Shown: piece after piece, positions 575 to 37,377 of the stretch
Position numbering within the stretch: position 1 is the stretch's first letter
Layout of the letters: every line of letters starts with the position of its first letter
Assembly: GCA_964510025.1 (NCBI GenBank)
Contig: CAZDZV010000013.1
Span: 1 to 37,377 of the forward strand
Length of the DNA: 37,377 bases
DNA from: an uncultured Methanosarcinales archaeon
GTDB lineage: Archaea > Nanobdellota > Nanobdellia > Woesearchaeales > DATDXC01
Direction of reading: 5' to 3'
Made by a program: the position numbers and the translations under genes
The notes under the pieces: generated by a model
What the model was told of the DNA's origin: nothing
What the model saw: the letters and a program-made list of their open reading frames with translations, nothing else
The model's database searches: none

Positions 575-612
575 ACAGACTGTCAAGAAAGCAGAGTATA
601 AATATTTTCTGC

Positions 613-1257
613 CTATCTGTAAGACTTCTTCCTTATCTTCAGGATCAGGCTGCTTAGGGTGCCGACAGGACAGAAGCAGTTGCACCAGAACCTGGGTATG
701 AAAAAAGAAGCTGCGAATATCAGCATGAAGATTGCCAGTGTCGGCAAGTAAAGATTGTAAACTCCCCTAAAGAAGAATCCCTGTACCGGCTTATAGAGAA
801 GGGATATGACTATGAATAGTGTAAAGGCCAAAAAAAAGTATCTTATTGAGCTAATCCATCCTGGCAGACATATCCTCTTGCCAGAGAGACTGCCCTGCCA
901 GTCCTGGAGAGTGCCGACAGGGCAAAGCTTATAGCACCAGTGCCTGTCTTTAAGATTCTTGAGCAGAAAAGCAGGTATGATAAACAGCCTTAGATTGCCG
1001 AAAGGGCATTTTCTGGGGCATGCCTGGCAGAAGATAAAAGGCACCTTAAAATAGCATCTTATGAACGGAAAAAGCGCAAATGGCAGGAATATAATGAAAG
1101 CTGGATATCTTAGGTCTGCATTGGACATGATAAAAAGTGAAGCGATCACCAGGGCAGCATATACAAGAATGTTGTAGCTGATGTGTGAGAAAATATGTGG
1201 GTGCAGTAATATGACAGATGCTAATATCAAAAGATAGACCAATGCAATCCTTTTCAT
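613..1257 (-). CDS. Membrane 4Fe-4S-binding protein (NapH/MauN-like)
   Basis: Hydrophobic segments with CQACPRKCPFG, WCYKLCPVG and WCNCFCPVG motifs. Overlaps the upstream gene by 4 nt. Confidence 0.75.
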   Translation of the reverse strand: MKRIALVYLLILASVILLHPHIFSHISYNILVYAALVIASLFIMSNADLRYPAFIIFLPFALFPFIRCYFKVPFIFCQACPRKCPFGNLRLFIIPAFLLKNLKDRHWCYKLCPVGTLQDWQGSLSGKRICLPGWISSIRYFFLAFTLFIVISLLYKPVQGFFFRGVYNLYLPTLAIFMLIFAASFFIPRFWCNCFCPVGTLSSLILKIRKKSYR

Positions 1258-3284: not shown

Positions 3285-3316
3285 AATAAACAGATAGGAT
3301 TAGACATAAATAAATG

Positions 3317-22345: not shown

Positions 22346-24886
22346 TTAGAGGCTAAGGATAGCCTGCCTCTCGATAACTTCCTTGCTGCCGTTGAAGATA
22401 TACACCGATGCTTTCCTGGTCTTTGTCCTCTTGTCCACTACCTTGTGCACCTCAACATCAAAGCCAAGCTCTATGAGCTTCTTTATTGTCTTTTTCTGGA
22501 CAGAAGAAAGCTGCTCGTACTGCAGCTTGCATTCTACAAACCTGAAGCTTTTTCCGAAGAACAGGAAATCAGGCATACCATGATGCACCTTATTTATGTA
22601 TTCCAGATGCTCATGCAGGCCTGGATGGTGCCTGTCCATCAGGTCCTTGAGAAGCTGGTATTTTCTCCTTACGTTGGGGTAGATCTCGTCCTTTAGTATG
22701 CCGATAAGGCCAGCTCTCCATACATGCCCTTTTTTCTCCAGCCGCTTCCTTATCAGCTTTTCTGAAAGCCCTTTTTTGTCTTCATAATCTTTTGATACCG
22801 GGATGTACCTATGGATGACCTTTATGTATTCATGCAGCCTTGACTGCCTTTCTATTTCTGCAGCCTCTTCTATATCCTGCCTTGTGTAGCCGAATGGCTG
22901 CAGAATGACAAACAATGACCTTACAAGAAGCTTCTTGTACTGCCCTATATCCGGCTTCCTGTATTCTTCCGGCAATACCGGCCCTTTTCCATAGATGTAC
23001 CTTATGAACTGGCCGGGCATTACTGCAACGCCTTTTTTCCTAAGCTTCTCCAGTATCATCTTCTGGGGGATGTTATGCCTGTAGTTGTCCTTAGAAATCC
23101 TGACTGCTACCGTAAGAAAATCCTTATGCACATCAGGTATGGCCCCTATGACCTTTCTGAGATAGCTGCAAAGGTAGGGGAAAGCAAGATGGACCTGTTT
23201 TTTGCTGTCGATAGATTTCAGAAATTCTATGCACTGCTTCTGGAACATCTTCACTATCTCAGGGGAAGACCTTTGCCTTATCTCGATGCCCCTTGCCTTT
23301 ATCTCTCCATTCCTGAAGACGCCATAATAAGTAGAAGGCAGGGCCCTGTACTTATCGATGACAGAAGGAAGGAATGTGACCCAGCGGAATATGCCTTCAG
23401 GCATTATGGGTATGCCTGTCTCAAGCTCTATCTCCCTGCAGAAATCCCTGACTTCTTTTTCTGTTATGCCTTTTTTCTTTATGAAGACAGAGTCAACAAT
23501 TGCATGGACAACCTTAAAGCCTTTTTCCTCTGCCAGCCTTGTGACCTTAAGCAATGTCTCCCTTGCATATGCGCAGATAGCCATGTGCGATGTAGGTATG
23601 CCGAGCTTGAATTCCCTGAACCTGAGGTAGCCATAGCAGCTGACCAATACCCATTTAAGGCCTTTGGCCCTTTCCTTGTTTATTGATGTGGGATTTTTCT
23701 TATAGTGCATCCTTCTGTCGATAAAAGGCTTAAGGACAACAGGGATAAGCCCTTTGAATGCCATGGATGCCTTTACAGGAAGATCTGGTATGGATGCAAA
23801 AGGGCCCTTATCTGTAAGCATCGAGTCTGCGCTTATGTTGTGGTTGTAGATAAGCCATGGGAACATGCTTACAAAATCTATCTCAGCGACATCCTTGTGG
23901 AAGCCTATCATGGGGTCATAATAATGGCCGCCCCTGTCTGCCTTAAGCATCTCAAGCATGGTCAACGGCGGCTCTATGGGCTTTTCCTTGTATGGGACCA
24001 GCATATCCTGCATTATCATCTCCCTCATAAGGGCTGTCTGGAAAACAGCCCCAAAGCTTCTTGAGGCTGTCCTCTGGAACAATGTTCCGGATAGCTGAAC
24101 AAGCTCCATTATAGCCTCTGGCTGGCATTCTGTGCCTACAAAGCTGTGGGTGTCTACCAAAAACCTTCCTTTAAGCCTGACTGCAAAATCCTGGTAGCGG
24201 ACCTGGCCATAGCTCCAGTAGCTTTTTCCTCCCCTGTACCTTATATCATAATCATCCCATCTGTTTAAAGGGCAGCCTATTCTGTGCCTCTTCAGCCTCT
24301 GATACAGCAAAGGCATACGTGAGAAAGCGTAATCCATGACAATGCAGTCTGGATCCTCAAGCCTGAATATCCTTGAGAACTCCTCCAGTATTGCCTTTTC
24401 ACTGCCTTTTATAACCTTGCCGTTGACTTCTATGCACCTTATTTTATCTCCCTGGGAGATAACATTTAGCCTTAGTTTCTTTAGAGGGATATCTGTATGG
24501 CCCGGGATGGGGGCTATGTTTTCACCTAGGACAACAGCAGAGCAAGGCCTTATGTCATGCTTGTAGAGAAACATCTGCTCTGGGACAATATCTGCATTAT
24601 ACAAAGGGACCCTGTGCTTTGTAGCTTTTTCTATATCCCTTATGAACTTTTCAAATCCAGATATAGGCGCAGGTATCTCCAGAACATATTTGTATTTCCT
24701 AAGGTATGTCTTTTTCCTTACCTTTCTGAAAGCGACATCATTCTCCCTAAGGACTTTTTCTGCCTTTAATCCCGCATATATGGCTGTTCTGAAGTCTTTC
24801 TCGAGCCTTATGTCATCATCTCTTGTCTTGAGCCAGAGAATTATCTTGTTGCCTTTCCTGTATGCCTGCATCAGCCACGCTTTCAT
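22346..24886 (-). CDS. polB2: Family B DNA polymerase of the PolB2 type fused to a C-terminal VRR-NUC-like PD-(D/E)xK nuclease
   Basis: DFVSMFP (motif A), KWVLVSCYGY (motif B) and HAIVDS replacing YGDTDS (PolB2 hallmark). C-terminal GMPDFL...FVECK...LSSVQK. Confidence 0.85.
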   Translation of the reverse strand: MKAWLMQAYRKGNKIILWLKTRDDDIRLEKDFRTAIYAGLKAEKVLRENDVAFRKVRKKTYLRKYKYVLEIPAPISGFEKFIRDIEKATKHRVPLYNADIVPEQMFLYKHDIRPCSAVVLGENIAPIPGHTDIPLKKLRLNVISQGDKIRCIEVNGKVIKGSEKAILEEFSRIFRLEDPDCIVMDYAFSRMPLLYQRLKRHRIGCPLNRWDDYDIRYRGGKSYWSYGQVRYQDFAVRLKGRFLVDTHSFVGTECQPEAIMELVQLSGTLFQRTASRSFGAVFQTALMREMIMQDMLVPYKEKPIEPPLTMLEMLKADRGGHYYDPMIGFHKDVAEIDFVSMFPWLIYNHNISADSMLTDKGPFASIPDLPVKASMAFKGLIPVVLKPFIDRRMHYKKNPTSINKERAKGLKWVLVSCYGYLRFREFKLGIPTSHMAICAYARETLLKVTRLAEEKGFKVVHAIVDSVFIKKKGITEKEVRDFCREIELETGIPIMPEGIFRWVTFLPSVIDKYRALPSTYYGVFRNGEIKARGIEIRQRSSPEIVKMFQKQCIEFLKSIDSKKQVHLAFPYLCSYLRKVIGAIPDVHKDFLTVAVRISKDNYRHNIPQKMILEKLRKKGVAVMPGQFIRYIYGKGPVLPEEYRKPDIGQYKKLLVRSLFVILQPFGYTRQDIEEAAEIERQSRLHEYIKVIHRYIPVSKDYEDKKGLSEKLIRKRLEKKGHVWRAGLIGILKDEIYPNVRRKYQLLKDLMDRHHPGLHEHLEYINKVHHGMPDFLFFGKSFRFVECKLQYEQLSSVQKKTIKKLIELGFDVEVHKVVDKRTKTRKASVYIFNGSKEVIERQAILSL

Positions 24887-25704
24887 AGGCTATCAAAAGG
24901 GCTTTTTACATTGATCATAGCCGGACAGGCAGCATGGATATAGACCATAGAAGTTTCAGCAGAGCCATGGCCCAGCAATCCCTGCAATGTCTGAAGACTG
25001 CAACCGTTTTCAATGACATGCGTACCAAAGCTATGGCGGAAAGTGTGTGGATGGATATTTTTTTTGATTCCAGCTTCTTTTGCTGCCTTTTTTACAATTT
25101 TAAAGACAGTTTGTGTGCTTAAATGATAATTGTTATAGCCTCTAAAAACATAAGAATCATATTCCATGTTCTCACTCCAGTCTTTTAATTCATCTTTAAG
25201 TTTCTCAGCAATCACAAAAACCCTGTCTTTGTTTCCCTTTCCAGACCTTACCCAGCCATAGCTGTTGTCAAGCTCAAAATCTCTTACTCTTAAATTAACC
25301 ACCTCAGAAACCCTTAAGCCAGCGGCATACATCAAGCCTATCATAAGCTTATGTTTTTTATTTTTGACCACTGACAGAATCCTTATAAGCTCTTCTCTTG
25401 TAAGCATAGTTGGAAGGTGCTTTGGCTTTTTAGAATATCTTATGCTTAGCCTCCATCTTTTGAATAAGACCCAATCAAGCATGAATTTGATCGAGTTTAA
25501 GGCAACATTAAGAGTATTTCCTGAAAGGTTTCTGTCTGACAGATGGTTTATATATTCTTTTACATCCTTCTTGGTTATTTCATTATGGTCTTTTTTACAG
25601 TATTTTAAGAATCTTTTATTCCAAAAAACATAGGCCTTTATTGTCTTATTGCTTAACCTTCTTCTGAATGCTTCTTTTTTAATGGCTTCGACTATGTCTA
25701 ACAT
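24883..25704 (-). CDS. Tyrosine recombinase (Xer/IntI-like, N-terminal SAM-like domain), catalytically intact
   Basis: GLRVSE (R), GKGNKDR (K), HTFRH (HxxR), LLGH and VYIH (Y), with C-terminal KSPFDSL. At 273 aa it has no visible IntI-specific insertion. Confidence 0.93.
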   Translation of the reverse strand: MLDIVEAIKKEAFRRRLSNKTIKAYVFWNKRFLKYCKKDHNEITKKDVKEYINHLSDRNLSGNTLNVALNSIKFMLDWVLFKRWRLSIRYSKKPKHLPTMLTREELIRILSVVKNKKHKLMIGLMYAAGLRVSEVVNLRVRDFELDNSYGWVRSGKGNKDRVFVIAEKLKDELKDWSENMEYDSYVFRGYNNYHLSTQTVFKIVKKAAKEAGIKKNIHPHTFRHSFGTHVIENGCSLQTLQGLLGHGSAETSMVYIHAACPAMINVKSPFDSL

Positions 25705-25814
25705 ACTGATTCACCTAAAAATAATCCTGGCGGGCTTATTTAAATATCTCACGCACCTAAATGTCTTGTGCCTGTGGTAGGGTGATCTTGGGCTTTTAGG
25801 TCCTTTATCAATCA

Positions 25815-25842
25815 AATTTCCATAAGTCAGGTAATGTCCAGT
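25815..25842. other. Candidate recombinase-proximal dif-like site (attI analogue)
   Basis: AATTTCCATAA-GTCAGG-TAATGTCCAGT has the same arm/6-bp/arm layout as the downstream junctions, with a degenerate right arm. Confidence 0.4.
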
Positions 25843-25914
25843 GGAATCTTAATTTCTTGTGAAAATTTTCTTTCATTTACCTCAAATGCTTAAGAAACAG
25901 TCAGATAATTAATT

Positions 25915-26193
25915 ATGCATCCAGATACTAAAATTACATTGATTACGCTTCCAATAAGTAAGAAAACATTTGAGGTGAAAAAAATGAAAGAAATAGATGA
26001 AATATGGCTCCAAAGGAAATTTGCAATGGATAGATTGTATGATGATACCGAGAAGTTATTACGCTATAACTCCCTTTGCGCACAAAGATTGCAATCTGAA
26101 GCAGAATCTGGGACATGTGCTCCAAAGCTATTCCCAGGATGTCAAAATCAAAGAGATTGCTATTATACCTTACCAGTAGTCACGAAAAAGTGA
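25915..26193 (+). CDS. Hypothetical protein (possible cassette 0); start uncertain
   Basis: ORF lies between two candidate sites. SD-like GAGGTGA precedes the internal ATG (MKEIDEIW). Confidence 0.5.
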   Translation: MHPDTKITLITLPISKKTFEVKKMKEIDEIWLQRKFAMDRLYDDTEKLLRYNSLCAQRLQSEAESGTCAPKLFPGCQNQRDCYYTLPVVTKK

Positions 26194-26248
26194 CTTTCAG
26201 GTTTAATAATAATGCCTTTTCAAGCCCCATAACCACAAAATTTCAAAG

Positions 26249-26276
26249 AATACGTATATAAATAGTTACATTCAAT
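26249..26276. other. Cassette junction J0 (degenerate left arm)
   Basis: AATACGTATAT-AAATAG-TTACATTCAAT. GTTACATTC (26265-26273) is the reverse complement of GAATGTAAC (27898-27906). Confidence 0.65.
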
Positions 26277-26441
26277 AAAATTTTACTTTTTACACGAGAA
26301 AAACGGGGTTTCCTAAAAAAACTGAAGGGGGAAAATCTCTTTAATGTTTTAATTGATTGGCTGGGCTAAAAAAATTAGAAATCGAAAGATATATATATAT
26401 ATCCTTTGATAGAAAATAGATATATACTACTTTAAAGGAGG

Positions 26442-27584
26442 ATGAAAAAAATGAAAAATAAATATTTGATTCTGAGCCTGTTTGTGATTGGGATTTTAAT
26501 GTCAAGTTCTCTTGTTTCTGCTGGTTGGTTTGATTGGCTGTTTAGAGATAAAAATGTTGTTGGAGAGGCGTATGCTGGAATAAGTCCAAGTGCATGTAAT
26601 TATTATAAACAAAAGTGCGAGGATACTAATTATAAATATCATCAAAGATATTGTGATATTTGGGATAAATATTGTAAACCTACTTGTGATGATGGGATCA
26701 AAAACGGAAATGAAGAAGGTATAGATTGTGGTGGTGATTGTAAACCTTGTTCAAATGTTGTAAGCCCTAAATTTGAAGAATTATGGGTCGACAAAGTTTA
26801 TCCATTATCACAAAATTATATATCTTTTACTACAGATGCCTTAGTACAATACTCAGCAGATGGAAACAAGAAGAACACTTACGGATATGATGAAAATGGT
26901 GGAAGAATCACCGCAAGTGGCGATTTAACATTAGACCCATCCAAATATGTCATAACAAAATCAAAAGCATTAGTCCATTATTCAAGTGATGGCAATAACA
27001 AGCACACAGTAGAATTTCAGAGCGATGGTACAAGATTTACCACAAATAATGATTTAATCTTCGATCCTGCAAGATATGTTGTTGCTAAAACTGATGCTAT
27101 TGTTCAATATTCAGGAGATGGAAATAATAAAAATACATATGGCTTTGATGACCAAGGGGGAAGAATAACAGCAAACGGAAATCTTAATCTTGATCCATCA
27201 CAATATGTTGTGGTTAATAGTGATGCTATTGTTCAATATTCAGCGGATGGTCAAAATAAGAATACTTATGGTTACGACAATAATGGGGGCAGAATCACTG
27301 CAAATGGAGACCTAACACTCGACCCATCTAAGTATGTAATCACTAAATCTAAAGCATTAGTTCATTACTCTAGTGATGAAAACATTAAACATACTGTAGA
27401 ATTTGAAGATGGTAGTAGAGAATTCTCCATGGGAACTAGATTAACTACTGCTGGAGATTTAACATTAGATCCTGCTGGTAATGTTATAGTTAATGGAGAT
27501 TTAGTTTTATTATCTCCTGATGGGTCTAAATGGAAAATAGAAGTAAGTAATTCTGGAGAATTATCAACTGAAAAAATTCAATAA
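26442..27584 (+). CDS. Secreted repeat-containing surface protein (cassette C1)
   Basis: Signal peptide, CDDGIKNGNEEGIDCGGDCKPC motif, five ~43-aa repeats and C-terminal LLSPDGSKWKIEVSNSGEL. SD GGAGG. Confidence 0.85.
   Translation: MKKMKNKYLILSLFVIGILMSSSLVSAGWFDWLFRDKNVVGEAYAGISPSACNYYKQKCEDTNYKYHQRYCDIWDKYCKPTCDDGIKNGNEEGIDCGGDCKPCSNVVSPKFEELWVDKVYPLSQNYISFTTDALVQYSADGNKKNTYGYDENGGRITASGDLTLDPSKYVITKSKALVHYSSDGNNKHTVEFQSDGTRFTTNNDLIFDPARYVVAKTDAIVQYSGDGNNKNTYGFDDQGGRITANGNLNLDPSQYVVVNSDAIVQYSADGQNKNTYGYDNNGGRITANGDLTLDPSKYVITKSKALVHYSSDENIKHTVEFEDGSREFSMGTRLTTAGDLTLDPAGNVIVNGDLVLLSPDGSKWKIEVSNSGELSTEKIQ
26832..27485 (+). repeat. Five ~129-bp intragenic coding repeats (A-B-A-A-B)
   Basis: A type: TDALVQYSADGNKKNTYGYDENGGRITASGDLTLDPSKYV. 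B type: SKALVHYSSDGNNKHTVEF... Confidence 0.85.
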
Positions 27585-27894
27585 TTTTTTTATTTTTCTT
27601 TTTTAGCTTAGCCTTTATGTTATTTCTGAAAGAGAGATTTCCCCCTTAATATATTTGTTAGATTGGGCTAAGCCCTCGATAAACGGAAACCCCTTAAAAT
27701 ATAGTCTCGCTAACGCTCGAATTGATAAAAAAGTAAGAATTTTACTCTGCGGAATTTTGCTACGCAAAACCGCCCTTTCGGGCTTTCCTTGTCCTCCCCA
27801 CTCCGCAATTGTATTTCTTCTGTAACTAAATGTATTACTTTAAAGAACCTGATGTTTATATTGCTGTAAACCTATAAACAATTGCTCGTAGGTC

Positions 27895-27922
27895 GGCGAA
27901 TGTAACAGGCATTATGCGAAAT
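27895..27922. other. Cassette junction J1, dif-like site
   Basis: GGCGAATGTAA-CAGGCA-TTATGCGAAAT. Confidence 0.8.
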
Positions 27923-28179
27923 TTTTTATTTGCCTCGTCGGTAAACGCCGACTTTCTGGATGATAATTTCTTTTCCCATACAAAGCTCAAAGAAATTCTC
28001 TTCCGGAAAGCAAGGGCTTACGTCGAAAATGCTAATGTTACTGCCTTCGTTTAATCGGGGATTAAACGGCTACGTACGAGTCAAGCTCTACTCCGACCTA
28101 AATTTTTTATTATATTAGAATTGGGGGCTAGTTAGGTTAAAATTTATATATTAAGTCCGATTATCTAATCTATTCTAAA

Positions 28180-29172
28180 ATGGCAAAGGCTAAAGAAAGC
28201 AGTTTTAAAAGAATTGGCGAATCTGAAACATGGGAAAAGGGACAAAAAGCAAGCGTGGCAACTGTTCTAGAAAGGAAAGATGGTGTTAAAGGAATTTCTA
28301 TCAAAATTGGCAAAAAAGTTCCTTATCAATCTCGTCCAAGATACGGAAAAACAATCTGGATAGATGAAGAATTAGACTTGCCTTCTTGGCTTAATTGGTT
28401 TATCAGAACTATCAAGAATATGTACTTAAAGGTATTTGGTAAGAGGGTCACTGGAATTGATGAAGAATCTGAATATTATAGGACTAGAACTGAACAATTA
28501 ACTAAAGAATTAGCTGAAACACAGAGAAAACTTGAAGAATCTGAGCAGAAACAAATCTCAAATAAGCACATTGTAAGCCTAGCACAGAAATCAATTGAAA
28601 ACTTAGATAACTATCAAACAGTATTTAATGAATTCAAATCGAACATAAATGAAAGTTTGGATAAAGGCGTTGGATTTGAAGAAAAGATAAAAACTAAGAT
28701 AATGGATAATAGATGGTTATTAGGTTTAGAATGCCAAGTAGAAGCAAAGAATGAGAACGTAGATAAACAAACTCAAATCGATTTACATGTCAAAACTAAA
28801 TATAATCAAGATAGAATATTTGAGGTAAAAAGCCCCAATATAAAACCAGTGATTCGAAAGGATAACAAAGAAAAACGAAGATTCATAATTTCTCCAGATT
28901 TAGCTGATGGTTTAAGTGAACTAATTTTATATATGCGAAGAACGGATATATATTCTCAACATAAGAATGAGGGTCTTTACGGAATTCAGAAAGCTTCAGG
29001 ATGTATCTTAATCGGTTATAATCTCAGCGATTCGGAACTAGAGTTATTAAAGGAACTGAATTTTCACTTAGGTCCGCATATTCAAATTGTTACATATAAT
29101 GATCTTATTAAAAATATTGAATCTGAAATGACAATAATTAAAACTGTCAAAGAAGAAATAACAAAACAATAA
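28180..29172 (+). CDS. Shedu-like (SduA/DUF4263) defence nuclease with coiled-coil N-terminal region (cassette C2)
   Basis: QIDLHV...IFEVKSP PD-(D/E)xK core, LADGLSELILY, ILIG and IQIVTYNDLI C-terminus typical of DUF4263. Confidence 0.7.
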   Translation: MAKAKESSFKRIGESETWEKGQKASVATVLERKDGVKGISIKIGKKVPYQSRPRYGKTIWIDEELDLPSWLNWFIRTIKNMYLKVFGKRVTGIDEESEYYRTRTEQLTKELAETQRKLEESEQKQISNKHIVSLAQKSIENLDNYQTVFNEFKSNINESLDKGVGFEEKIKTKIMDNRWLLGLECQVEAKNENVDKQTQIDLHVKTKYNQDRIFEVKSPNIKPVIRKDNKEKRRFIISPDLADGLSELILYMRRTDIYSQHKNEGLYGIQKASGCILIGYNLSDSELELLKELNFHLGPHIQIVTYNDLIKNIESEMTIIKTVKEEITKQ

Positions 29173-29176
29173 ACCT

Positions 29177-31894
29177 CTAAATCTTATCTAAAATTGTCTC
29201 AACAATTTCAATCTCTTTTTTATTCAATCCATACAACTTGTAAACTTCTTGGTCTATTTCATCATCTAATTTTTTAATTTCTTTTTCTAAGCGAACTTTT
29301 TCATCAGTTTTCTTATTATGTAATTTAGTTAATGCTTCATTTTTTTGTATAATATTGCCTACTAAATCTTTGATTTTATTCTGTTGGCTAGGCTTAGATT
29401 TTATAATAGGTAATACTCTCAATTGCGGAGCTTGATATTGATAATATCCCCCACTCATTCTAAGTCCTGAGAATAATTCTCCATAAATATAACTCATTAG
29501 TTTTGAGTTAAGTAAACCAGCTAAAAACAATAAATCATATCCATCTTTTGGTGAATGAACACAATTAGTATTTATAGAAGCATAATCACCTTTCAAATCA
29601 ACAAACCCCTCTAATCTTAGTGCAAGTTTAGCAAATACAATTTTTTGATTTTGATATAACTCCTTTCTAGTATCTTTTATTTTACTAATATCTAATTTTG
29701 GAAAAAATAATTGCTTTCCTTTATTTAAGAATCTGACATATCCATAGGATGTCGCAAATCTGTCAATAGTACCTGAATTTAAGATTGACAAACCGTCAAT
29801 CCCTTCTTTAATGTGTTTTGAGAATTCATCTGATTCTGCTGCAGTACTTGTAGCTTGAACCTCTGCACACTCTTCAAGCGGGGTTGAATTATTATATATC
29901 CTCTCAATAATTTTTGCGCCTTTGGTCAGTAGGAGCCCCCAGATATTTTCAGGTAGCATTTCCAGATTTTTTGAAGATATTTTATCAGAAATAATTTTTG
30001 AATTCTCATCAATTTCAAATCTCTCTATTTGGATATCATACCTCTTTTCTTGTTTGATTTTTTGGAAAATAGTAACTACAGGATATACAGAAGGATCTTC
30101 AAAAACGTTTACTTGAGATAAATCAAATATTTTCACTAATTTATAATTCTGATTAATAAATTGCCTAAATGCTACACCATATGGAGAGGATAAAAATTTA
30201 TTAGGAGTAATAAATGCTACATAGCCACCATATTTACATAAATTGAGTGCTTGTTCAAAAAACAAAATATATATGTCATATGTTCCACGAGATGAACTAT
30301 ATTTATTTTTCCAAAAGTCTTTAACCTCTTTGCCGTAAGTCTTTGTTAGTTGTATCGCATTAATATAAGGAGGATTACCAATAACTACATCAAAACCCCC
30401 CTTGTCCATTATTTCTCTAAATTCTTCTTGCCATTTGAGAGGTTTGAACTTTACAAATCTAATATCATCAATCAAAGAATTCCCAACTTTGATATTCTCT
30501 TGCAATGTAGGCAATCTATGCTTTTTCTCAGCAGCCTTTAACAACAGATTCAATTGTGCAATCTCTACAGCTTTAGCATCTAAATCAACACCAAAAATAT
30601 TATCTTTAAGAATCTCAACCTTTCTTCCGTAAGTTGCAGATTCTCCGGTTAAATCTAGCTTTGTTTGGTCTATCTCACCATTTTTCTTTTTATCAAGAGT
30701 TACCAAATAATCAAAAGCCTTCATTAAGAAGCTTCCAGAACCGCAGGCAGGATCAAGAATCTTGATATTTTTTAAATCAAATTTCCTGTCTTTCGCTAAC
30801 TCTCCTACTGTGTTCTTAACAATATAATCAACTACATAGGTAGGAGTATAATAAATGCCTTGCTCTTTTCTATGCGCCTTGCCATTAGAAAGTTTTGCTC
30901 TTTTTGGTGTTGTTTTAAGTATATGTCCCAAGTATTGCTCATATATATTACCAAGAACATCAGCATCGATAACTCCAAAATCGTAATGTACTGTATTATC
31001 GGATGTCTTGAATAACCCTCTTATTACTTTTTCAAGAATATTATCATCAATTTCCAAATCTTCGCATAAATGCTGTACAAATAACTTACTATTATAGATA
31101 TTATCTATTTGCCTAAATAAATTATTCAGCTTTTTATACACTCTTTTATGAGTATCTTCCCTTATAAGAGATTGCAGCATCGGAGCTTCCAGTTCTTTGT
31201 CTTCCAATGTTCTGATAAAGATAAGCCTGTCTAAAATCCTTTGTACTGATTCGTCTAACTCATCAACAGACAAATTCTTAGAAGCATTATCTTTTAGGAT
31301 GTTTTTTGATAAGATTTCTCTAAAAACTGTCATATCCGTTAGAAGCTGCTTATCTACGGGAACCTTCTTGGCTTTTTTACCCCATTTTTCCGCTTCTTTA
31401 TCTATCTCATTGCTTGCAAAACTCTCTTTTGATAATAGCCAAAGCTGGTCAAACCTATCAAGAAATTGCTGACAATTAATCCCAAAAAACATATTTTGAA
31501 GAGGATTTGCAGATTTCCATTCAGCATTGAATACTTTTATTCCCTCAAAATCCGATAAGATTGCCCAAGTACATCCTTTATGCCAAGAGTAATTGATTGC
31601 CTGCTCTACAAATTTTATGTTCTCTAAGTCTTCTTTTAGTGATTTAGCTTCAAGAAAGAATTTAGGTATTCCATCAATCCTAAAACCGTAATCTACTCTT
31701 TTTCTAGAAATCTTTTCTTCAGCAGTTACTTCTTCTCCATCCTCTACTTTCCAGCCTAAAGCACGAAATAAAGGAAGAATGAAGTCTTTTTTAGTCATCT
31801 CCTCATTATAAGATTTTAGTCTGCCAGATTGAACAACTTGGTCATATTTCTCAACTAACAGTTGAATTTCTTTTTTGGCTGTTTCCTTGTCCAT
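29177..31894 (-). CDS. Type IIG restriction-modification fusion enzyme (REase + N6-adenine MTase + TRD) (cassette C2)
   Basis: N-terminal RVDY...FLEAK nuclease, GIYYTP, ILDPACGSGSFL, FDVVIGNPPY and a C-terminal specificity/helical region. Confidence 0.93.
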   Translation of the reverse strand: MDKETAKKEIQLLVEKYDQVVQSGRLKSYNEEMTKKDFILPLFRALGWKVEDGEEVTAEEKISRKRVDYGFRIDGIPKFFLEAKSLKEDLENIKFVEQAINYSWHKGCTWAILSDFEGIKVFNAEWKSANPLQNMFFGINCQQFLDRFDQLWLLSKESFASNEIDKEAEKWGKKAKKVPVDKQLLTDMTVFREILSKNILKDNASKNLSVDELDESVQRILDRLIFIRTLEDKELEAPMLQSLIREDTHKRVYKKLNNLFRQIDNIYNSKLFVQHLCEDLEIDDNILEKVIRGLFKTSDNTVHYDFGVIDADVLGNIYEQYLGHILKTTPKRAKLSNGKAHRKEQGIYYTPTYVVDYIVKNTVGELAKDRKFDLKNIKILDPACGSGSFLMKAFDYLVTLDKKKNGEIDQTKLDLTGESATYGRKVEILKDNIFGVDLDAKAVEIAQLNLLLKAAEKKHRLPTLQENIKVGNSLIDDIRFVKFKPLKWQEEFREIMDKGGFDVVIGNPPYINAIQLTKTYGKEVKDFWKNKYSSSRGTYDIYILFFEQALNLCKYGGYVAFITPNKFLSSPYGVAFRQFINQNYKLVKIFDLSQVNVFEDPSVYPVVTIFQKIKQEKRYDIQIERFEIDENSKIISDKISSKNLEMLPENIWGLLLTKGAKIIERIYNNSTPLEECAEVQATSTAAESDEFSKHIKEGIDGLSILNSGTIDRFATSYGYVRFLNKGKQLFFPKLDISKIKDTRKELYQNQKIVFAKLALRLEGFVDLKGDYASINTNCVHSPKDGYDLLFLAGLLNSKLMSYIYGELFSGLRMSGGYYQYQAPQLRVLPIIKSKPSQQNKIKDLVGNIIQKNEALTKLHNKKTDEKVRLEKEIKKLDDEIDQEVYKLYGLNKKEIEIVETILDKI

Positions 31895-31940
31895 ATTCTA
31901 AATATCAAAGACAACTAATTTATAAATATTCCTTAAAATT

Positions 31941-32219
31941 TTATTCTAAGCTGTGATTGTTAAAAAACCACCTATATTTATCATTTAGTTTATCATAGCA
32001 GCTTTGACATATTCCTGTTTTATTAACACCAAGATTATCAATTTTGCTTCCGCAAGTGATACATAAATTATTCATCAAATTGTGCAAATCAAATAGAATC
32101 ATACTTTTTGTGTCATTTGGAATCTTAGAATTATCAAGCTCTTTTTTCAGTCTTTTCATTAATAAAACTCTTTCAAAGTCATCTTTAGTTTCCTCTCTAT
32201 ATTTATTTATCTTATTCAT
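31941..32219 (-). CDS. Small hypothetical protein with CxxC...CxxC
   Basis: CITC...CQSC. Overlaps the upstream gene by 4 nt. Confidence 0.6.
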   Translation of the reverse strand: MNKINKYREETKDDFERVLLMKRLKKELDNSKIPNDTKSMILFDLHNLMNNLCITCGSKIDNLGVNKTGICQSCYDKLNDKYRWFFNNHSLE

Positions 32220-32899
32220 CTCATCCTTAAAGCTTGACCTTTAAATTTACCATTAAACTCAATATCATCAAAGACATTAACCAATATTGTCGCTACCCAT
32301 GAAGCTGTTGATAATCCATTCATATTTCCGTTATATGCCAATTTTATTTGACCTTCTATTGTTTCAGGATTAGTTGCGATTCTACTGGCACCTATTTTTA
32401 TCCAATTTGCTTTATTTTCTTTTAGGTAATTGTAAGCAGCTTCAAATCTCTCTTTCTCTACCCTAATTTTATTTCCTGAAGAAGTAAAACCAATCTTTAT
32501 GCCCCAATCAGACAACTCTTCAATGATAAAACTTTGACCTTTGCTTGAAGGAGAGATTAATTGCATATTCTTATGGTGCTGTAAATAATCATATATCTTT
32601 TTCCACATATTCTCATCTCCTTTGCTTTTCTTGCCTAAGAATTTAAGAAAAGGAGTTTCCTTTTTCTCTGGTTGTTTTGGGTTATACATCCAATAATTAT
32701 CTTTATGGATTACTCTATTTTCTTTTTGAAAAAAGTTAAGATAAGGCGAAACTGCCCCCATCTTAGCCCCCAATTCATTAGATAATTCAATAACAGTAAA
32801 GGCCTTATCACTATTCTCTCTCAAAAAATCAATAAGTTTATCTTTTAGCGATTCGGATTTTCTATCCAAATTTTTAAATTCTTCTCGACTTATAGGCAT
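32216..32899 (-). CDS. Hypothetical protein with N-terminal winged HTH
   Basis: LIDFLRENSDKAFTVIELSNELG helix-turn-helix pattern. SD AGGTGA and a TATA box upstream. Confidence 0.7.
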   Translation of the reverse strand: MPISREEFKNLDRKSESLKDKLIDFLRENSDKAFTVIELSNELGAKMGAVSPYLNFFQKENRVIHKDNYWMYNPKQPEKKETPFLKFLGKKSKGDENMWKKIYDYLQHHKNMQLISPSSKGQSFIIEELSDWGIKIGFTSSGNKIRVEKERFEAAYNYLKENKANWIKIGASRIATNPETIEGQIKLAYNGNMNGLSTASWVATILVNVFDDIEFNGKFKGQALRMR

Positions 32900-33088
32900 A
32901 TCAAATCACCTTCTTATATGTTTATATGTTGTGTATATATGTATGTATATATAAATGTTTCTATTTTAACCCCCAATTCTTACGAAAGTTAGTCTGTTAC
33001 ACAGAAATCTATAATTAACATATAATAAAAAACTACGGCAGTAACGCATTTTCGACAAATAAAAAGCTACGCTCACCATCAAAGGTTC

Positions 33089-33117
33089 ACTTCGCATAAT
33101 CAAATGCTATGCGGTTG
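33089..33117. other. Cassette junction J2, dif-like site (7-bp spacer)
   Basis: ACTTCGCATAA-TCAAATG-CTATGCGGTTG. Confidence 0.75.
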
Positions 33118-33208
33118 CGTTACTCAAGCCATCAAAGACTTTGCGTTACTCTCCCAAATTTTTTAATGCCGACAAAACCAAAAGGTTTATATATTAGTGG
33201 TTATTTTT

Positions 33209-33244
33209 ATAACCAGATGGTTATTTAATTGACCAAGTGGTCAA
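33209..33244. promoter_or_regulatory. Tandem palindromic operator sites between the TATA box and the MNT start
   Basis: ATAACCA-GA-TGGTTAT (33209-33224) and TTGACCA-AG-TGGTCAA (33229-33244), with a 20-bp period. A further half-site lies at 33198-33204. Confidence 0.7.
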
Positions 33245-33245
33245 G

Positions 33246-33785
33246 ATGGACGAAATACTCAAAAACAATATATACAAAATACTAGAACTTTTTATAGAGA
33301 ATCCCAGTAAAGATTTTTCTGTTCGGGGCATTGCCCGGAAATTAGATTTGAGCCATGCTACTGTGATAAAATATGTCTCTAATCTATTTTCCTTAAATCT
33401 AATAAAAAAGAAAGAAGATACTTTATATCCAACCTACTATGCTAACACTGAAAGTGATAAGTATAAGTTTTACAAGAAAAATTATATATTGTTTAAGATA
33501 AAAGAGTCTGGCATAGTTGGATATATCCAAAAACAAACTTTAGCATCTTCGATAATCTTATTTGGGAGCTGCTCAAAGGGGGCATTTACAGAAAAAAGCG
33601 ATATAGATATCTTTGTAGAAGCTAAAGAATCAGGTTCAGATATAAGTAAATATGAAAAAAAGCTAAACAGAAAAATCAATCTTTTATTTGAGCCAAATAT
33701 CAATAATCTTTCAAATGAGCTAAGAAATAACATCATAAATGGTATAATCTTATATGGTTTTATAAGGATTAATGGAGGGAAATAA
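33246..33785 (+). CDS. wHTH + minimal nucleotidyltransferase (MNT antitoxin) (cassette C3)
   Basis: FSVRGIARKLDLSHATV HTH and ILFGSCSKG...SDIDIFV. ATG 33246 is preferred over GTG 33237. Confidence 0.88.
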   Translation: MDEILKNNIYKILELFIENPSKDFSVRGIARKLDLSHATVIKYVSNLFSLNLIKKKEDTLYPTYYANTESDKYKFYKKNYILFKIKESGIVGYIQKQTLASSIILFGSCSKGAFTEKSDIDIFVEAKESGSDISKYEKKLNRKINLLFEPNINNLSNELRNNIINGIILYGFIRINGGK

Positions 33786-33788
33786 AAA

Positions 33789-34214
33789 ATGGCAGATAAA
33801 ATAAGCTGGAAAGAATGTGTTGACCAGAATATCATAACAAAAACAACTCCAGATAAAGAAAGATCATTGCAGATGCTTAACATGGCAAATTTAAGGCTGG
33901 AATTTTGGGATAAAAAAATCAATGATAAGTTTATTGCCCTAAAAGTTGAGGCATATTATGATATAATAAAAGAGCTTATTTTTGCCCATATGTATAAGAA
34001 TGGATTCAATTGCACAAACCATTTATGCTTAATAGCCTATCTTAGAGAGAAATTTGAAAATTTTGATTTTGAAATTGATAAGACAGATGAATTGAGAAAA
34101 CTAAGGAATGAGATAAATTATAGGGGATTCTCTGTTCAAAAAGACTACTTAGACAGGAATGAACTAGAGTTTAAGAGTATTATAAACAAGCTAAAAGATA
34201 GCCTAAAAAAATAA
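33789..34214 (+). CDS. HEPN-domain toxin (cassette C3)
   Basis: AYYDIIKEL...NHLCLIAYL...RKLRNEINY (Rx4Y variant). Lies immediately downstream of the MNT gene. Confidence 0.8.
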   Translation: MADKISWKECVDQNIITKTTPDKERSLQMLNMANLRLEFWDKKINDKFIALKVEAYYDIIKELIFAHMYKNGFNCTNHLCLIAYLREKFENFDFEIDKTDELRKLRNEINYRGFSVQKDYLDRNELEFKSIINKLKDSLKK

Positions 34215-34314
34215 TTTTTCGTTTTTGAGTATTTCTTATTGTTTTGTCAGCAAATAAAAAACTCTCTCGCTACGCTCGAGCCTGCCAGCTCGAGTCTCTT
34301 CGAGCCTCGAGGGC

Positions 34315-34342
34315 AGGTCGCATAACATTGATTATAAGAAAT
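34315..34342. other. Cassette junction J3, dif-like site
   Basis: AGGTCGCATAA-CATTGA-TTATAAGAAAT. Confidence 0.8.
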
Positions 34343-34397
34343 ATTACTCAGAAAACTTTTTTAGTTTTTAGAAGGGGGCTTTGAGAACCTATTAATA

Positions 34398-35072
34398 TTA
34401 AATGTTAGCTAAATCTTCAAATCTATTGTAACAGACATCCCTTATATTCCAATCACCATCTTCCGGTAGACCTGTACAAGATTCATCTGCATAACATTCA
34501 AATTTTAGTTTTGTAGGTAGATTATCACAATCACTATTTTCTGGTATTACTAAAGCTCTTTTTAACAAACATTCTTTAATTGATTCTTCTGGATATTGAT
34601 TGCAATCAATACTTGTAGTTTTATCAGGATATTCCATTTTTACCCAATCTCTTAATCTATTTTGATTGTTTGTTTTATCAAAATATTTGATCTCATAATT
34701 TTCTTGTGGTAAATTTTTAATTTTAAATTTTATATTCCTGTCACAATTACACATTTCTGGAAAATAGAACATCTTATCTTTAATATATAAATTTATGATA
34801 TTTGCTTCAAGTTTATAATCTCCATCAATATTTCCACCACAATTAAAATTTGTTTTTCCAGAAATTATTAGGTCATTTCCAATCCATTGTATATCAGTTA
34901 ACTTTTCAAATCCAGAAGTTAAAAAATTGTTTTCTTTACAATCTTCATAATCAAATGAATAATTTAGAAATAAATATTTGATACCAGCAAAATAAAATAG
35001 ACCTAAAAGTATTATGACTGCTAATATAATTAAGCTGATTTTATGTTTTGATATAAGATTGCTTACTTGCAT
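34398..35072 (-). CDS. Membrane-anchored Cys-rich extracellular protein (cassette C4)
   Basis: N-terminal TM helix, FNCGG...MCNC and several further Cys residues. Confidence 0.75.
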   Translation of the reverse strand: MQVSNLISKHKISLIILAVIILLGLFYFAGIKYLFLNYSFDYEDCKENNFLTSGFEKLTDIQWIGNDLIISGKTNFNCGGNIDGDYKLEANIINLYIKDKMFYFPEMCNCDRNIKFKIKNLPQENYEIKYFDKTNNQNRLRDWVKMEYPDKTTSIDCNQYPEESIKECLLKRALVIPENSDCDNLPTKLKFECYADESCTGLPEDGDWNIRDVCYNRFEDLANI

Positions 35073-35267
35073 TTAATATAATATAAGCGGTTATTTATAT
35101 AAATATTGTGTTCTCAAAGCCCCTTAATCTATTCACAATAATGCCCTTCGGGCTCGAACAAAAAGTTTTCTTGCGTCATACCTCGATGATTTCTCGAGTG
35201 TTACGCTCACAGCTGTTCGCTACACCTCAAGCCCTCTTCGAGTTTTTGCTCCATTACATTCCGCAAA

Positions 35268-35295
35268 AATTCTTATAACAGGCATTAAGTTCAAT
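35268..35295. other. Cassette junction J4, dif-like site
   Basis: AATTCTTATAA-CAGGCA-TTAAGTTCAAT. The spacer is identical to that of J1. Confidence 0.8.
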
Positions 35296-35464
35296 AAAAT
35301 TTGAGTTCCTTGCCGAGTAATAAAAACTGCAGAAATAAGGCATTTATTTATAAATAAAGATTACCTGATACAGTGTTTTAAGTTTAATTCTCGTCGATAA
35401 TCAATATAAAAGGTTAAATTTATATAGTAAAACCACATCCAGTACTTTCCAAGGGTGGAAAAAT

Positions 35465-35704
35465 ATGAAAAACGATGATGTCATAGGACTCTTAGAAAGG
35501 ATCGATAAGAAGCTTGGATTGATACTGGGAAACCAAATCACTGAGAAGGAGGGCAACATAAAGGCACAGGTGGCCAGACTTGCCAAATCAAATCTGGGCT
35601 CTATTGAGATTGCACAAATACTGGGAATAAGTCCAGCTCATGCGTCCAAAGAATTATCGATCATAAGGAAGGTGAAGAAGCATGAAAACAAAACAGAAGA
35701 ATGA
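35465..35704 (+). CDS. Small coiled-coil + HTH protein, paralog 1 of 6
   Basis: LERIDKKLGLIL...LGSIEIAQILGIS. Confidence 0.8.
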   Translation: MKNDDVIGLLERIDKKLGLILGNQITEKEGNIKAQVARLAKSNLGSIEIAQILGISPAHASKELSIIRKVKKHENKTEE

Positions 35705-35903
35705 ACTTGACCTATTACAGGAAATCAACAATAAGCTTGATATGCTTGTTGCTTTGACTGCCGCCCAAGGAAAAGATAGAGACGAGCAGATCCGAACTTT
35801 AGCAGGTCTAAGCTTTACTAATGCTGATATCAGCAGGCTTCTGGGAATCCCTAAGGGAACTGTTGATGTTGTCAGAGCGAAAAAGAAGAGTGGTAAAAAA
35901 TGA
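35682..35903 (+). CDS. Small coiled-coil + HTH protein, paralog 2 of 6
   Basis: LQEINNKLDMLVAL...FTNADISRLLGIPKGTV. SD AGGTGA. Confidence 0.8.
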   Translation: MKTKQKNELDLLQEINNKLDMLVALTAAQGKDRDEQIRTLAGLSFTNADISRLLGIPKGTVDVVRAKKKSGKK

Positions 35904-36133
35904 ACCCTGATCAGTTTTCAATAATTGAAAAAAAGCTCAACACCGTAATAAAGTTGTTAGCCATGCAAGCTATTGGCGATAAAGAGTATCGCCAACAAAT
36001 CACACTTCTTGATGCTATGGGTTTCCAGCAAAAGGAGATTGCAGACTTAACAGGAAAAACCACAAACAATGTGAAAGTCACGCTTCACCACATTAGGAAA
36101 TCACAAAAGAAAGGTGGAAAGAAAAATGAATGA
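35900..36133 (+). CDS. Small coiled-coil + HTH protein, paralog 3 of 6
   Basis: IEKKLNTVIKLLA...GFQQKEIADLTGKT. ATGA overlap with the upstream gene. Confidence 0.8.
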   Translation: MNPDQFSIIEKKLNTVIKLLAMQAIGDKEYRQQITLLDAMGFQQKEIADLTGKTTNNVKVTLHHIRKSQKKGGKKNE

Positions 36134-36317
36134 TAAGCAATTTGATGAAATCTGCAAAAAGTTAGACCGGATTTTTGCAATCATTGCAGTCCAGAGTATA
36201 GAAAATAAAGATGATAAGATTTACACACTAAAAAATTTAGGCTTCAAAAGCGATGAGGTTAACCCCATTGTTGGCGTAAAGAGCTGTAGGCAAATGGAAG
36301 GATGGAAAAGAAAATGA
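36126..36317 (+). CDS. Small coiled-coil + HTH-like protein, paralog 4 of 6
   Basis: ICKKLDRIFAIIA...LKNLGFKSDEVNPIVG. Start placed at ATG 36126. Confidence 0.75.
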   Translation: MNDKQFDEICKKLDRIFAIIAVQSIENKDDKIYTLKNLGFKSDEVNPIVGVKSCRQMEGWKRK

Positions 36318-36511
36318 ACGATCCTGAAATCACAAAAAAGCTAGACACAATAATTGCACTTCTTGCAACACAAGGTAAAGAAGATGTAGAAAAACTAAAG
36401 ATAATGAAAGCTTTAGGCTATCCTTATAGTGAAATCAGTAAATTACTTGGAGTTCCTGAAGGAACATTAAAAACATGGGATTTTAAAAATCGAAAGTCCA
36501 AATCAAGGTGA
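36314..36511 (+). CDS. Small coiled-coil + HTH protein, paralog 5 of 6
   Basis: ITKKLDTIIALLA...GYPYSEISKLLGVPEGTL. ATGA overlap at 36314. Confidence 0.8.
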   Translation: MNDPEITKKLDTIIALLATQGKEDVEKLKIMKALGYPYSEISKLLGVPEGTLKTWDFKNRKSKSR

Positions 36512-36516
36512 TAACT

Positions 36517-36729
36517 ATGGAATCAGATGATGCTAAAAAAATTATTCGGCGTTTAGACGTGATGATAAACCTATTAATGAGTAGCAGCCAACAGAATCCT
36601 ATTAAAGACTCTGATAAGATAGCTTCTTTGCATGGTTTGGATCTTAGCGCAGCAGAAATTGCTGAAATTACAAACAAAAGCAGACAAAATATTGATGTTG
36701 TGCTTAGGAGACTTAAGCAGAAAAAATAA
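36517..36729 (+). CDS. Small coiled-coil + HTH protein, paralog 6 of 6
   Basis: IIRRLDVMINLL...LSAAEIAEITNKSRQNI. SD AGGTGA before ATG 36517. Confidence 0.8.
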   Translation: MESDDAKKIIRRLDVMINLLMSSSQQNPIKDSDKIASLHGLDLSAAEIAEITNKSRQNIDVVLRRLKQKK

Positions 36730-36730
36730 A

Positions 36731-37377
36731 ATGGATATACAAGAATTAATTGCACGTGGTCGTTTTATCTTCAATGGCGCGCCCAAAAGACTTGATGCTT
36801 ACAGAGAAGTAAATGGGAGAAGAAATGCAAAAGAGATTTCGAAGAAAATTGGAAGGAACCTCTCTTCAACTCTAGCCGATCTTCAAAAAATTAAAGATAT
36901 TGGCTTAATACAGCTCAAAGAAGATGGACAAGGTAGACCAATAAAAAAGGATAATTCAATTATCTATGAAAAAACATCTCTAGCAAGATGCATTTCTTTA
37001 TCCTATTTTAAAGATCCAATTAAAGCCCAGAAATCTATTAAAAAATTCACTCCAAAAAGCAAAGGCAAAAAAATAGCGATAAATTATCCTGCATTTTTAT
37101 CAGAGACGGAAGTTATAGATATTTGCAGAACAGGGGAAGATCAAATACATGAATTTAAGGCTGCAGGAACTGATATTAAAAAAATAACTGAGGAAGTAGC
37201 AGCAATGCTCCATAATAGAGAAGGTGGTTTAATATTTTACGGAGTAGAAGATAATGGAGATATTACAGGTACGGATAAAAAAAGTCAAGATATGGATCAG
37301 CCATTACAAAATTCAATAAGGAATTCAATAGACCCCTCGCCCCCTGCGGTAAAACTTAAACAACTTACGGTTGCAGG
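36731..37377 (+). CDS. wHTH + Schlafen/AlbA_2-domain protein, partial (runs off the right end of the window)
   Basis: Translated by hand: MDIQELIARGRF...NAKEISKKIGRNLSSTLADLQKIKDIGLI (wHTH)...GEDQIHEFK...VAAMLHNREGGLIFYGVEDNGDITG (AlbA_2 signature). Confidence 0.88.
   Translation, partial: MDIQELIARGRFIFNGAPKRLDAYREVNGRRNAKEISKKIGRNLSSTLADLQKIKDIGLIQLKEDGQGRPIKKDNSIIYEKTSLARCISLSYFKDPIKAQKSIKKFTPKSKGKKIAINYPAFLSETEVIDICRTGEDQIHEFKAAGTDIKKITEEVAAMLHNREGGLIFYGVEDNGDITGTDKKSQDMDQPLQNSIRNSIDPSPPAVKLKQLTVA

Follow-up and report, generated by a model that had tools for sequence, protein, structure and literature searches.

How does a row of unrelated genes come to stand beside a tyrosine recombinase gene, with each block of genes bounded by sites that look like those of Xer recombinases? 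This question is raised by the window analysed here, a stretch of 37,377 nucleotides that makes up the entire contig C13 of a 1.70-Mb genome in 33 contigs (labelled G000) from an uncultured archaeon of the Woesearchaeales. To our knowledge, the means by which DPANN archaea exchange genes are poorly known. The textbook example of a system that accumulates and rearranges genes is the integron, whose definition rests on a single lineage of enzymes and a single type of site. In the window, the GC content drops from about 0.45 to about 0.31 at about 24.9 kb, and a low-GC island runs from there to the contig end. The boundary of the island is marked by the gene of a 273-aa tyrosine recombinase on the minus strand, and the blocks of genes beyond it are separated by five dif-like junctions, J0 to J4 (Table 1). 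A sequence-only reading of the window had proposed that each block was once a circle with one symmetric site, inserted by the neighbouring recombinase. Our analysis supported this interpretation with three refinements: the site is larger than proposed, J2 is degenerate and the enzyme is not necessarily dedicated to the array. The locus is probably an array of gene cassettes worked by a tyrosine recombinase of the XerA family, which would combine an integron-like logic with an enzyme and a core site of the Xer/dif type.

Opening and closing arms of the same cassette are mostly complementary

Internal junctions were made of a purine/G-rich triplet, five variable letters and TAA, followed by a spacer mostly starting with CA, and then by TTA, five variable letters and AAT. 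The arm that opens each block had been described as complementary to the arm that closes the same block, kilobases away. Junctions were picked in eight arrays on their constant letters alone (at least 10 of 11), leaving the variable letters free for comparison. The five variable positions were perfectly complementary in 20 of 27 pairs of opening and closing arms belonging to one cassette. Perfect complementarity was found in 8 of 135 non-adjacent pairs from the same array, in 47 of 1028 pairs from different arrays and in 2 of the 35 pairs of arms facing each other across a junction. None of 100,000 within-array permutations reached 20 matching pairs, and the covariation seen in the window thus holds across the eight arrays. 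When three arrays were added, perfect arms were counted in 25 of 34 cassettes.

The pairing extended beyond the arms. In 20 of 25 cassettes, searching the 45 nt after the opening arm against the 130 nt before the closing arm revealed a second stretch, 10-15 nt long, that was repeated in inverted orientation, compared with 1.8% of 600 mismatched pairs. Among the 22 cassettes with an inverted stretch of at least 8 nt, this stretch began directly after the opening arm in 15, and the gap between its second copy and the closing arm was mostly 37-65 nt (up to 116). The piece in between, about 40-60 nt long, is a module containing small hairpins and motifs that recur; it was also present in other genomes and on contig C23 of G000. 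When the two ends of a cassette were joined and folded, the median stability was -29.0 kcal/mol, compared with -15.7 kcal/mol when the start of another cassette was used, and the cassette's own start gave the more stable fold in 24 of 25 cases. The module stays at the same cassette end irrespective of the strand of the genes, which suggests a feature of the DNA and not a gene terminator. Collectively, the site exceeds 28 bp and comprises the core, a structured module of about 40-60 nt and the second inverted stretch.

The constant letters (TAA-CA, TTA and AAT) read in the same direction at all junctions picked in the eight arrays, and scanning the opposite strand of these stretches gave 0-3 matches each. 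Spacers formed a small family tied to neither arm. A wobble test for the folding strand found just three non-Watson-Crick pairs, too few to choose a strand. The conserved element shared by L001 and C23 was considered as a candidate RNA gene and turned out to be the cassette-end module with its junction. Rfam searches of seven sources returned only tRNA and rRNA at the gathering level, and nothing at E <= 1 for the tail of C23.

The five junctions of the window

All five junction strings that had been reported for the window were present at the positions listed in Table 1, each once, on the plus strand and in an intergenic gap. The status of J2 was the point to be amended: it exists as an intergenic string with a left flank paralogous to that of J3, and it is degenerate, lacking the constant letters and failing the feature score. 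The bare layout TAA-N6/7-TTA is common, with 23 copies in the 12.5 kb between 24883 and 37377. A 12-mer common to J1 and J4 occurred at only these two places in the whole genome.

The cassettes of the window differed in the extent of their pairing. The arms of cassette 1 were complementary at 8 of 8 positions, and no outer inverted stretch of at least 8 nt was found in this cassette. In cassette 2, the 10 nt directly after the opening arm were repeated in inverted orientation about 25 nt ahead of the closing arm. The arms of cassette 4 matched at 9 contiguous positions and its outer inverted stretch was 12 nt long. The closing arm of cassette 3, at J3, was perfectly complementary to the opening arm at J1 as well.

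For the fifth block, which is open at the contig end, a matching closing arm and junction were found on contig C23 (17858-17885, reverse reading). The segment C23:17858-18000 holds a cassette-end module with this junction, whose closing arm fits the right arm shared by J4 and the C22 site described below. A 14-mer following J4 was found only at 35296 and on C23, so C23 may continue the array of the window. No overlap of at least 15 nt between contig ends was found in the assembly.

A matrix trained on the ten arms of J0-J4 only was used to rank sites in the genome. The best match outside the window, at C5:22530, was palindromic and lay 38 bp upstream of a paralogous recombinase gene. Another match, at C22:18980, lay upstream of a third paralogue, and its right arm was identical to that of J4 at 11 of 11 positions. 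This dif-like site (C22:18980-19007) is about 45 bp upstream of the XerA-like gene, and the contig ends 217 nt further, so that a second array in the same genome is possible.

The array-linked recombinases are XerA-like

The recombinase of the window scored 218.2 bits against the NCBIfam model recomb_XerA_Arch (NF040815), whose cut-off is 220. G000 contains three XerA-like paralogues, on C13, C5 and C22, all with their best match to the archaeal XerA model; the C5 copy passed the cut-off (231.2 bits) and the C22 copy scored 209.5. A second copy in the genome G151 also passed, with 258.7 bits. The integron-integrase model TIGR02249 gave 205.4 bits with the enzyme of the window, below its cut-off of 265, and the match was split into two stretches. 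The first stretch ended at model position 179, and the best stretch of the C22 paralogue began at 238; the uncovered part of the model presumably corresponds to the IntI-specific domain. The score against PRK15417 was 134.6 for a cut-off of 435. The enzyme had been said to lack the IntI insertion, which is consistent with a XerA-type protein matching the integrase model in two stretches below cut-off, the placement of the domain being our assumption. The motifs that we take to hold the catalytic Arg, Lys, His-x-x-Arg, His and Tyr residues were readable in the 273-aa translation.

A quick maximum-likelihood tree with Shimodaira-Hasegawa-like approximate likelihood ratio test (SH-aLRT) support was built with G135 left out. 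Array-linked enzymes, including that of the window, formed a clade of 33 rows (SH-aLRT 99), and all 19 rows labelled with a site or an array fell inside it. Its sister was a clade (support 97) holding the C5 copy and the second copy of G151.

Equivalent sites and different cassettes in related genomes

A recombinase homologue was detected at E <= 1e-60 in 36 of 151 genomes of the order. A first site of the J0 type, the analogue of a primary site beside the recombinase gene, lay upstream of 12 of the 29 homologue loci returned. At 19 of these 29 loci the contig ended less than 1.5 kb upstream of the gene, compared with 2 of 29 for the downstream side; the loci include the unpublished G135, and the upstream count is 18 of 28 without it. 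Assembly breaks upstream of the recombinase fit a locus that differs between the cells of a population.

Within the family, G003 retained the polymerase-recombinase neighbourhood of the window, and the left arm of J0 and its flank were conserved in G001 and G002. Conservation among relatives also included the J0 spacer, which starts with A. In G001, the J0-equivalent left arm was joined directly to a J4-type right arm (11 of 11 positions identical). Cassettes 1-4 of the window therefore sit between the two halves of a site that this sister genome has in joined form. The contig of G002 stops after the first six bases of the right arm at the equivalent site.

Nine further arrays were found, in G084, G101, G151, G110, G011 and L007 and on the metagenome contigs L146, L148 and L155. 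G101, a genome in one contig, has at least 10 junctions. By reading of the listings, an array is present at about 10 of the 16 clade loci with at least 2 kb of upstream DNA. A search for arrays with the same junctions and other cassettes beside homologous recombinases of DPANN archaea had been proposed as a check; in other Woesearchaeales, an equivalent site was found upstream of such recombinases, and the arrays differed in cassette content. A search of 401 genomes of the order with the exact motif gave 10 matches against 25 for a reversed-pattern control (counted from the table), and hence no enrichment, and 2 of the 10 adjoined a homologous recombinase. No synteny of cassette genes was found near the first 19 homologue loci. 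A comparison of G043 with G076 was uninformative, since both have the same sequence. In the array of G011 (L142, C5:394-736), three junctions lie exactly 100 nt apart and bound gene-less mini-cassettes consisting of end sequences only.

A breakpoint at the junction and alternative contexts

The sequence-only reading had named the position of breakpoints between related loci as a test. Two metagenome contigs from two samples, L154 and L155, shared 497 nt with 100% identity. The shared part began within the recombinase gene, ran across the left arm and the spacer and included the TTA of the right arm; beyond it the contigs were unrelated. The divergence thus starts exactly after base 3 of the right arm, at the J0-type site beside the recombinase gene.

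Public data came from three runs of one study, kept as contigs with a depth of about 3-7, and probably represent the source sample. The run contigs showed alternative continuations at 27945 and 37092. In runs X1 and X2, the exact 32-nt core of J4 (35268-35299) was embedded in flanking sequence that bore no relation to the window, and the same junction therefore stands in a second context within the community.

Cassettes carry accessory genes

The cassettes of the window lean to defence. In seven other arrays, 29 of 52 cassette-region proteins had a Pfam family and 23 had none; the families included peptidases, LemA, a CAP-domain protein, transporters, MgtC, NUDIX and HD proteins, a nuclease, methyltransferases, Fur with a ZIP transporter, and regulators. 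These contents are accessory in type. A comparison of 14 array stretches at E <= 1e-8 found only three pairs with shared content. The Fur-ZIP pair is inside a cassette in L148 and outside the array in G084. A nucleotidyltransferase with a small partner, 32% identical to the pair in cassette 3 of the window, is located directly downstream of the G002 recombinase (L093, G002:C14, 1735-2636).

Cassette units spanned 0.1-5 kb. They contained no recombinase, and Pfam scans brought up no genes for replication, phage functions or transfer. Genes of both orientations were found in the window and in G101, which makes a single common promoter unlikely.

A model for cassette insertion

In the mechanism that we propose, a cassette is a unit that could exist as a circle. 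In the array, it opens with TTA, five variable letters and AAT, and the stretch of 10-15 nt usually comes directly after these. At its other end, the inverted copy of this stretch precedes the structured module (about 40-60 nt), which leads to a purine/G-rich triplet, the five letters complementary to the variable ones, TAA and then the 6-nt spacer. Circularisation would join the two ends into a long imperfect palindrome with a symmetric 11-6-11 core of the Xer type at its centre. The adjacent recombinase would then carry out recombination between this core and J0, or a different junction, with strand exchange in the spacer, so that cassettes would be inserted sequentially next to the recombinase gene and each would keep its own pair of arms in the array. 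Such circles would explain why each cassette has arms of its own, why the left half of J0 is conserved, why J4 and G001 share a right arm, and why L154 and L155 diverge where they do. The independence of spacers and arms would fit an exchange that does not require strict spacer identity. We infer from these patterns the circles, catalysis by the enzyme of the window, the place of strand exchange and the tolerance of unlike spacers.

Relation to known systems

The locus resembles an integron in that a tyrosine recombinase gene faces a primary site followed by a row of unrelated accessory cassettes. An element at the cassette end is variable in sequence and conserved in pairing, the first letters of a cassette are the complement of its own end, and contents differ between relatives. 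The attC site of integrons is a folded element of 55-140 nt with R'', L'', L' and R' boxes and a crossover in R' (GTT). No such GTT motif was present at the boundary here by inspection, no model-based attC scan having been run. Archaeal integrons, as presented in the available sections of Ghaly et al. 2022 (PMC9668308), rely on an IntI that has the extra domain, and their attC sites are folded. Data S1 and S3 of that study, in their available part, hold six Woesearchaeales and six Pacearchaeales entries, in rows with 2-4 attC hits and no IntI. The Woesearchaeales contigs that Data S3 lists as attC clusters lacking IntI include DSUA01000100.1 and JAHWHP010000053.1. In contrast to integrons, the enzyme here is XerA-like, without the extra domain, and a dif-like site of 28 bp forms the core. 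The boundary of a cassette falls at the centre of the palindrome, in the 6-nt spacer, and not at its 3' edge, so that an array junction is built from the halves of two cassettes. Furthermore, integron cassettes are mostly promoterless, co-oriented and transcribed from one promoter; the cassettes described here are not co-oriented and have genes on both strands.

Integrative mobile elements exploiting Xer (IMEX) include CTXphi, TLCphi, VGJphi and the gonococcal island. Like the cassettes, they are elements without a recombinase joined at dif-like sites; they can stack in tandem, and exchange without matching spacers is possible. Unlike them, the units described here are gene cassettes of 0.1-5 kb with a common structured end module, in which replication, phage or transfer genes were not seen, and they stand beside a distinct XerA subfamily while the better dif/XerA candidate of the genome is that of C5. 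Plasmid dif (pdif) modules of Acinetobacter have sites that alternate in orientation, which results in a module bounded by two like arms, and both XerC and XerD act on them. Here, the constant letters are co-directional at all picked junctions and the arms vary by cassette. The pdif modules reside on plasmids, depend on XerC and XerD and have no adjacent recombinase gene, whereas a single type of recombinase is found here. Both systems have small accessory modules, including defence-type genes, bounded by Xer sites. The pdif modules are described as carrying one to few accessory genes, including toxin-antitoxin genes, between 28-bp Xer sites and as being shuffled between replicons, in the available sections of PMC6449649, PMC13141974 and PMC12907356.

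Archaeal XerA/dif is known for the resolution of chromosome dimers, as stated in the available part of Cortez et al. 2010 (PMC2958812). It shares with the locus a single recombinase of the same family and the 11-6-11 layout of the predicted site, and differs in that it is not known for holding gene cassettes. No description of cassette arrays at dif-like sites beside a XerA-type enzyme was found in the literature covered, including the available sections of PMC9668308 and PMC8371274, and the predicted combination of an array-linked enzyme with a dif-like cassette array appears to have no published description there.

Alternative explanations

The proximity to IMEX and pdif modules raises the alternative that the enzyme is the chromosome-dimer resolvase and J0 its dif, where parasitic cassettes would pile up without any dedicated platform. 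The cassettes indeed lack a recombinase, G101 (in one contig) and G084 have a single XerA homologue, the score of 218.2 is close to the cut-off, and distant homologues have near-perfect palindromes 55-70 bp upstream, reminiscent of modules with dif next to xer. We nevertheless regard this explanation as unlikely. Separate copies passing the XerA cut-off exist in G000 (231.2) and in G151 (258.7), and the former, on C5, has its own palindromic site 38 bp upstream. J0 is asymmetric, and the array-linked enzymes form a clade of their own (99) that is sister to the canonical one. Moreover, one structured end module is common to the cassettes, and genes for replication or transfer were not seen among their contents.

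It is still less probable that the blocks are non-autonomous, transposon-like elements whose enzyme is encoded elsewhere and which insert preferentially at the ends of further copies, the nearby recombinase being a bystander or the marker of a preferred target. An 11-6-11 core with constant inner TAA and TTA is the layout of a tyrosine recombinase, the arrays begin at a conserved site beside one recombinase clade in many genomes, and no target duplications were seen in the junction listing. The terminal inverted repeats of each cassette (8 nt plus 10-15 nt) would suit such elements, as would 6-nt spacers that vary by junction and bring to mind the coupling sequences of Tn916-type elements. However, these repeats differ among the cassettes of one array and are therefore not the recognition ends of one transposase. 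A last alternative takes the junctions for AT-rich palindromes that arose by chance, or for hairpins of a terminator or regulatory kind, without any part in recombination. It is scarcely credible in spite of the frequent bare layout and the non-significant chain test in the window (see below), since it is contradicted by the arm covariation that 0 of 100,000 permutations reached, by arms that pair across kilobases and rarely within a junction (2 of 35), by the end-stem and fold statistics, by a module polarity independent of gene strand and by the exact breakpoint at the site.

Observations that weigh against a recombinase-driven array, and a possible folded substrate

Several observations weigh against a cassette array worked by the adjacent recombinase. 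With a relaxed definition, the window contained 333 sites and 50 complementary pairs, compared with about 45 in simulations (centre read off the distribution), and a chain of at least 3 occurred in 90 of 2000 simulations; this test was not significant, and the window alone therefore does not prove the pattern. Arms of 7 of the 27 cassettes were imperfect, and J2 is degenerate. About 6 of the 16 clade loci with sufficient upstream DNA were without a clear array (L006, L015, G137, G076:C7, L151 and G139). The run contigs contained no junction-to-junction joint, circle joint, empty site or excision joint, and no pair of close strains with the same cassette at two places was seen. In G101 and G084, the array-linked enzyme was the sole XerA homologue at E <= 1e-20, so it may be a housekeeping enzyme there and need not be dedicated to the array. 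Finally, arms that vary and yet preserve their pairing are left unexplained by plain double-strand binding.

This last observation opens a further possibility for the cassette array, which we put forward as tentative. The locus might represent an independently evolved, second integron-type system, in which a Xer-family enzyme recognises the folded palindrome of a cassette, single-stranded or as a cruciform, and exchanges strands at its apex. The suggestion is made because the cassette-specific letters of the arms and the outer stems stay complementary while their sequence drifts. By analogy with attC, drifting arms and stems that remain complementary bear the mark of selection on pairing, which would be unexpected if the site were recognised as a plain double strand. 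In the cassette array as proposed above, the logic of the integron seems to be rebuilt, in archaea of the ultra-small DPANN group, from a dif-like core and the enzyme family of chromosome resolution. Such an array would explain the hypervariable locus that breaks most assemblies just upstream of the recombinase gene, and loci of this kind escape integron-finding software. A compact recombinase and a 28-bp core are thereby offered for testing, together with a route to asking how symbiont-like archaea gain defence and surface genes.

Layout of the locus and other features

Features of the locus are collected in Table 1.

Table 1 Recombinase gene, sites and putative cassettes in the window.
Feature	Position	Strand	Description
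XerA-like tyrosine recombinase, 273 aa	24883-25704	-	Pfam Phage_integrase and SAM_4; transcribed away from the array
92-aa open reading frame (ORF)	25915-26193	+	Between recombinase and J0; no Pfam family
J0	26249-26276	+	Primary (attI-like) site; family-conserved left arm, A-starting spacer, opening arm of cassette 1
Cassette 1	26277-27894	+	380-aa repeat protein (gene 26442-27584)
J1	27895-27922	+	Internal junction, complete constant letters; feature score 11/11
Cassette 2	27923-33088		Four genes, both strands; arms match at 9 contiguous positions
Cassette 2 gene	28180-29172	+	330-aa unknown protein
Cassette 2 gene	29177-31894	-	905-aa type IIG restriction-modification enzyme; Pfam Eco57I, N6_Mtase, MmeI_Mtase, TaqI_C
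Cassette 2 genes	31941-32899	-	92-aa and 227-aa unknown proteins
J2	33089-33117	+	Degenerate junction; 7-nt spacer, right arm begins CTA
Cassette 3	33118-34314	+	182-aa helix-turn-helix (HTH) and minimal nucleotidyltransferase protein (33237-33785); 141-aa partner (33789-34214)
J3	34315-34342	+	Internal junction; feature score 11/11
Cassette 4	34343-35267	-	224-aa unknown protein (34398-35072)
J4	35268-35295	+	Internal junction by constant-letter feature score; right arm shared with G001 and C22 sites
Fifth block	35296-37377	+	Open at contig end; six small ORFs, three with sigma-70 region 4-like HTH; Schlafen AlbA_2 protein

The gene of cassette 1 holds four tandem units of 129 nt (43 aa each) at 26827-27429. 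The nucleotidyltransferase of cassette 3 matched the Pfam families Polbeta, NTP_transf_2 and HTH_11, and its 141-aa partner had no family. By DNA alignment, an ORF occupies the place of the 92-aa ORF in G002, and none was present in G001.

On the other side of the recombinase gene, an 846-aa protein is encoded at 22346-24886 (minus strand), with a weak match to family-B DNA polymerases and, at its C-terminus, a VRR-NUC nuclease domain. The start of its gene and the stop of the recombinase gene overlap by 4 nt. The protein is kept in relatives (64% to 37% identity), of which only G003 has it beside the recombinase. In the gap that separates the start of the recombinase gene from the first site (25705-25915), a conserved promoter-like AT box is followed by two copies of a GTCCAGTGG-like motif. 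The AT box and the GTCCAGTGG-like motifs stand at the equivalent place in L087, L088 and L093, that is, in four genomes of the family in all.

Elsewhere in G000, a repeat of about 29 nt was found at three places (C6:276, C6:3252 and C14:33335), two of them near contig ends, and may be a CRISPR repeat or the end of an element. Contig C31 (3.7 kb) has three tyrosine recombinase genes in a row (2-3457), and the low-GC contig C27 (6.6 kb) encodes a 376-aa recombinase; these are probably parts of other mobile elements.

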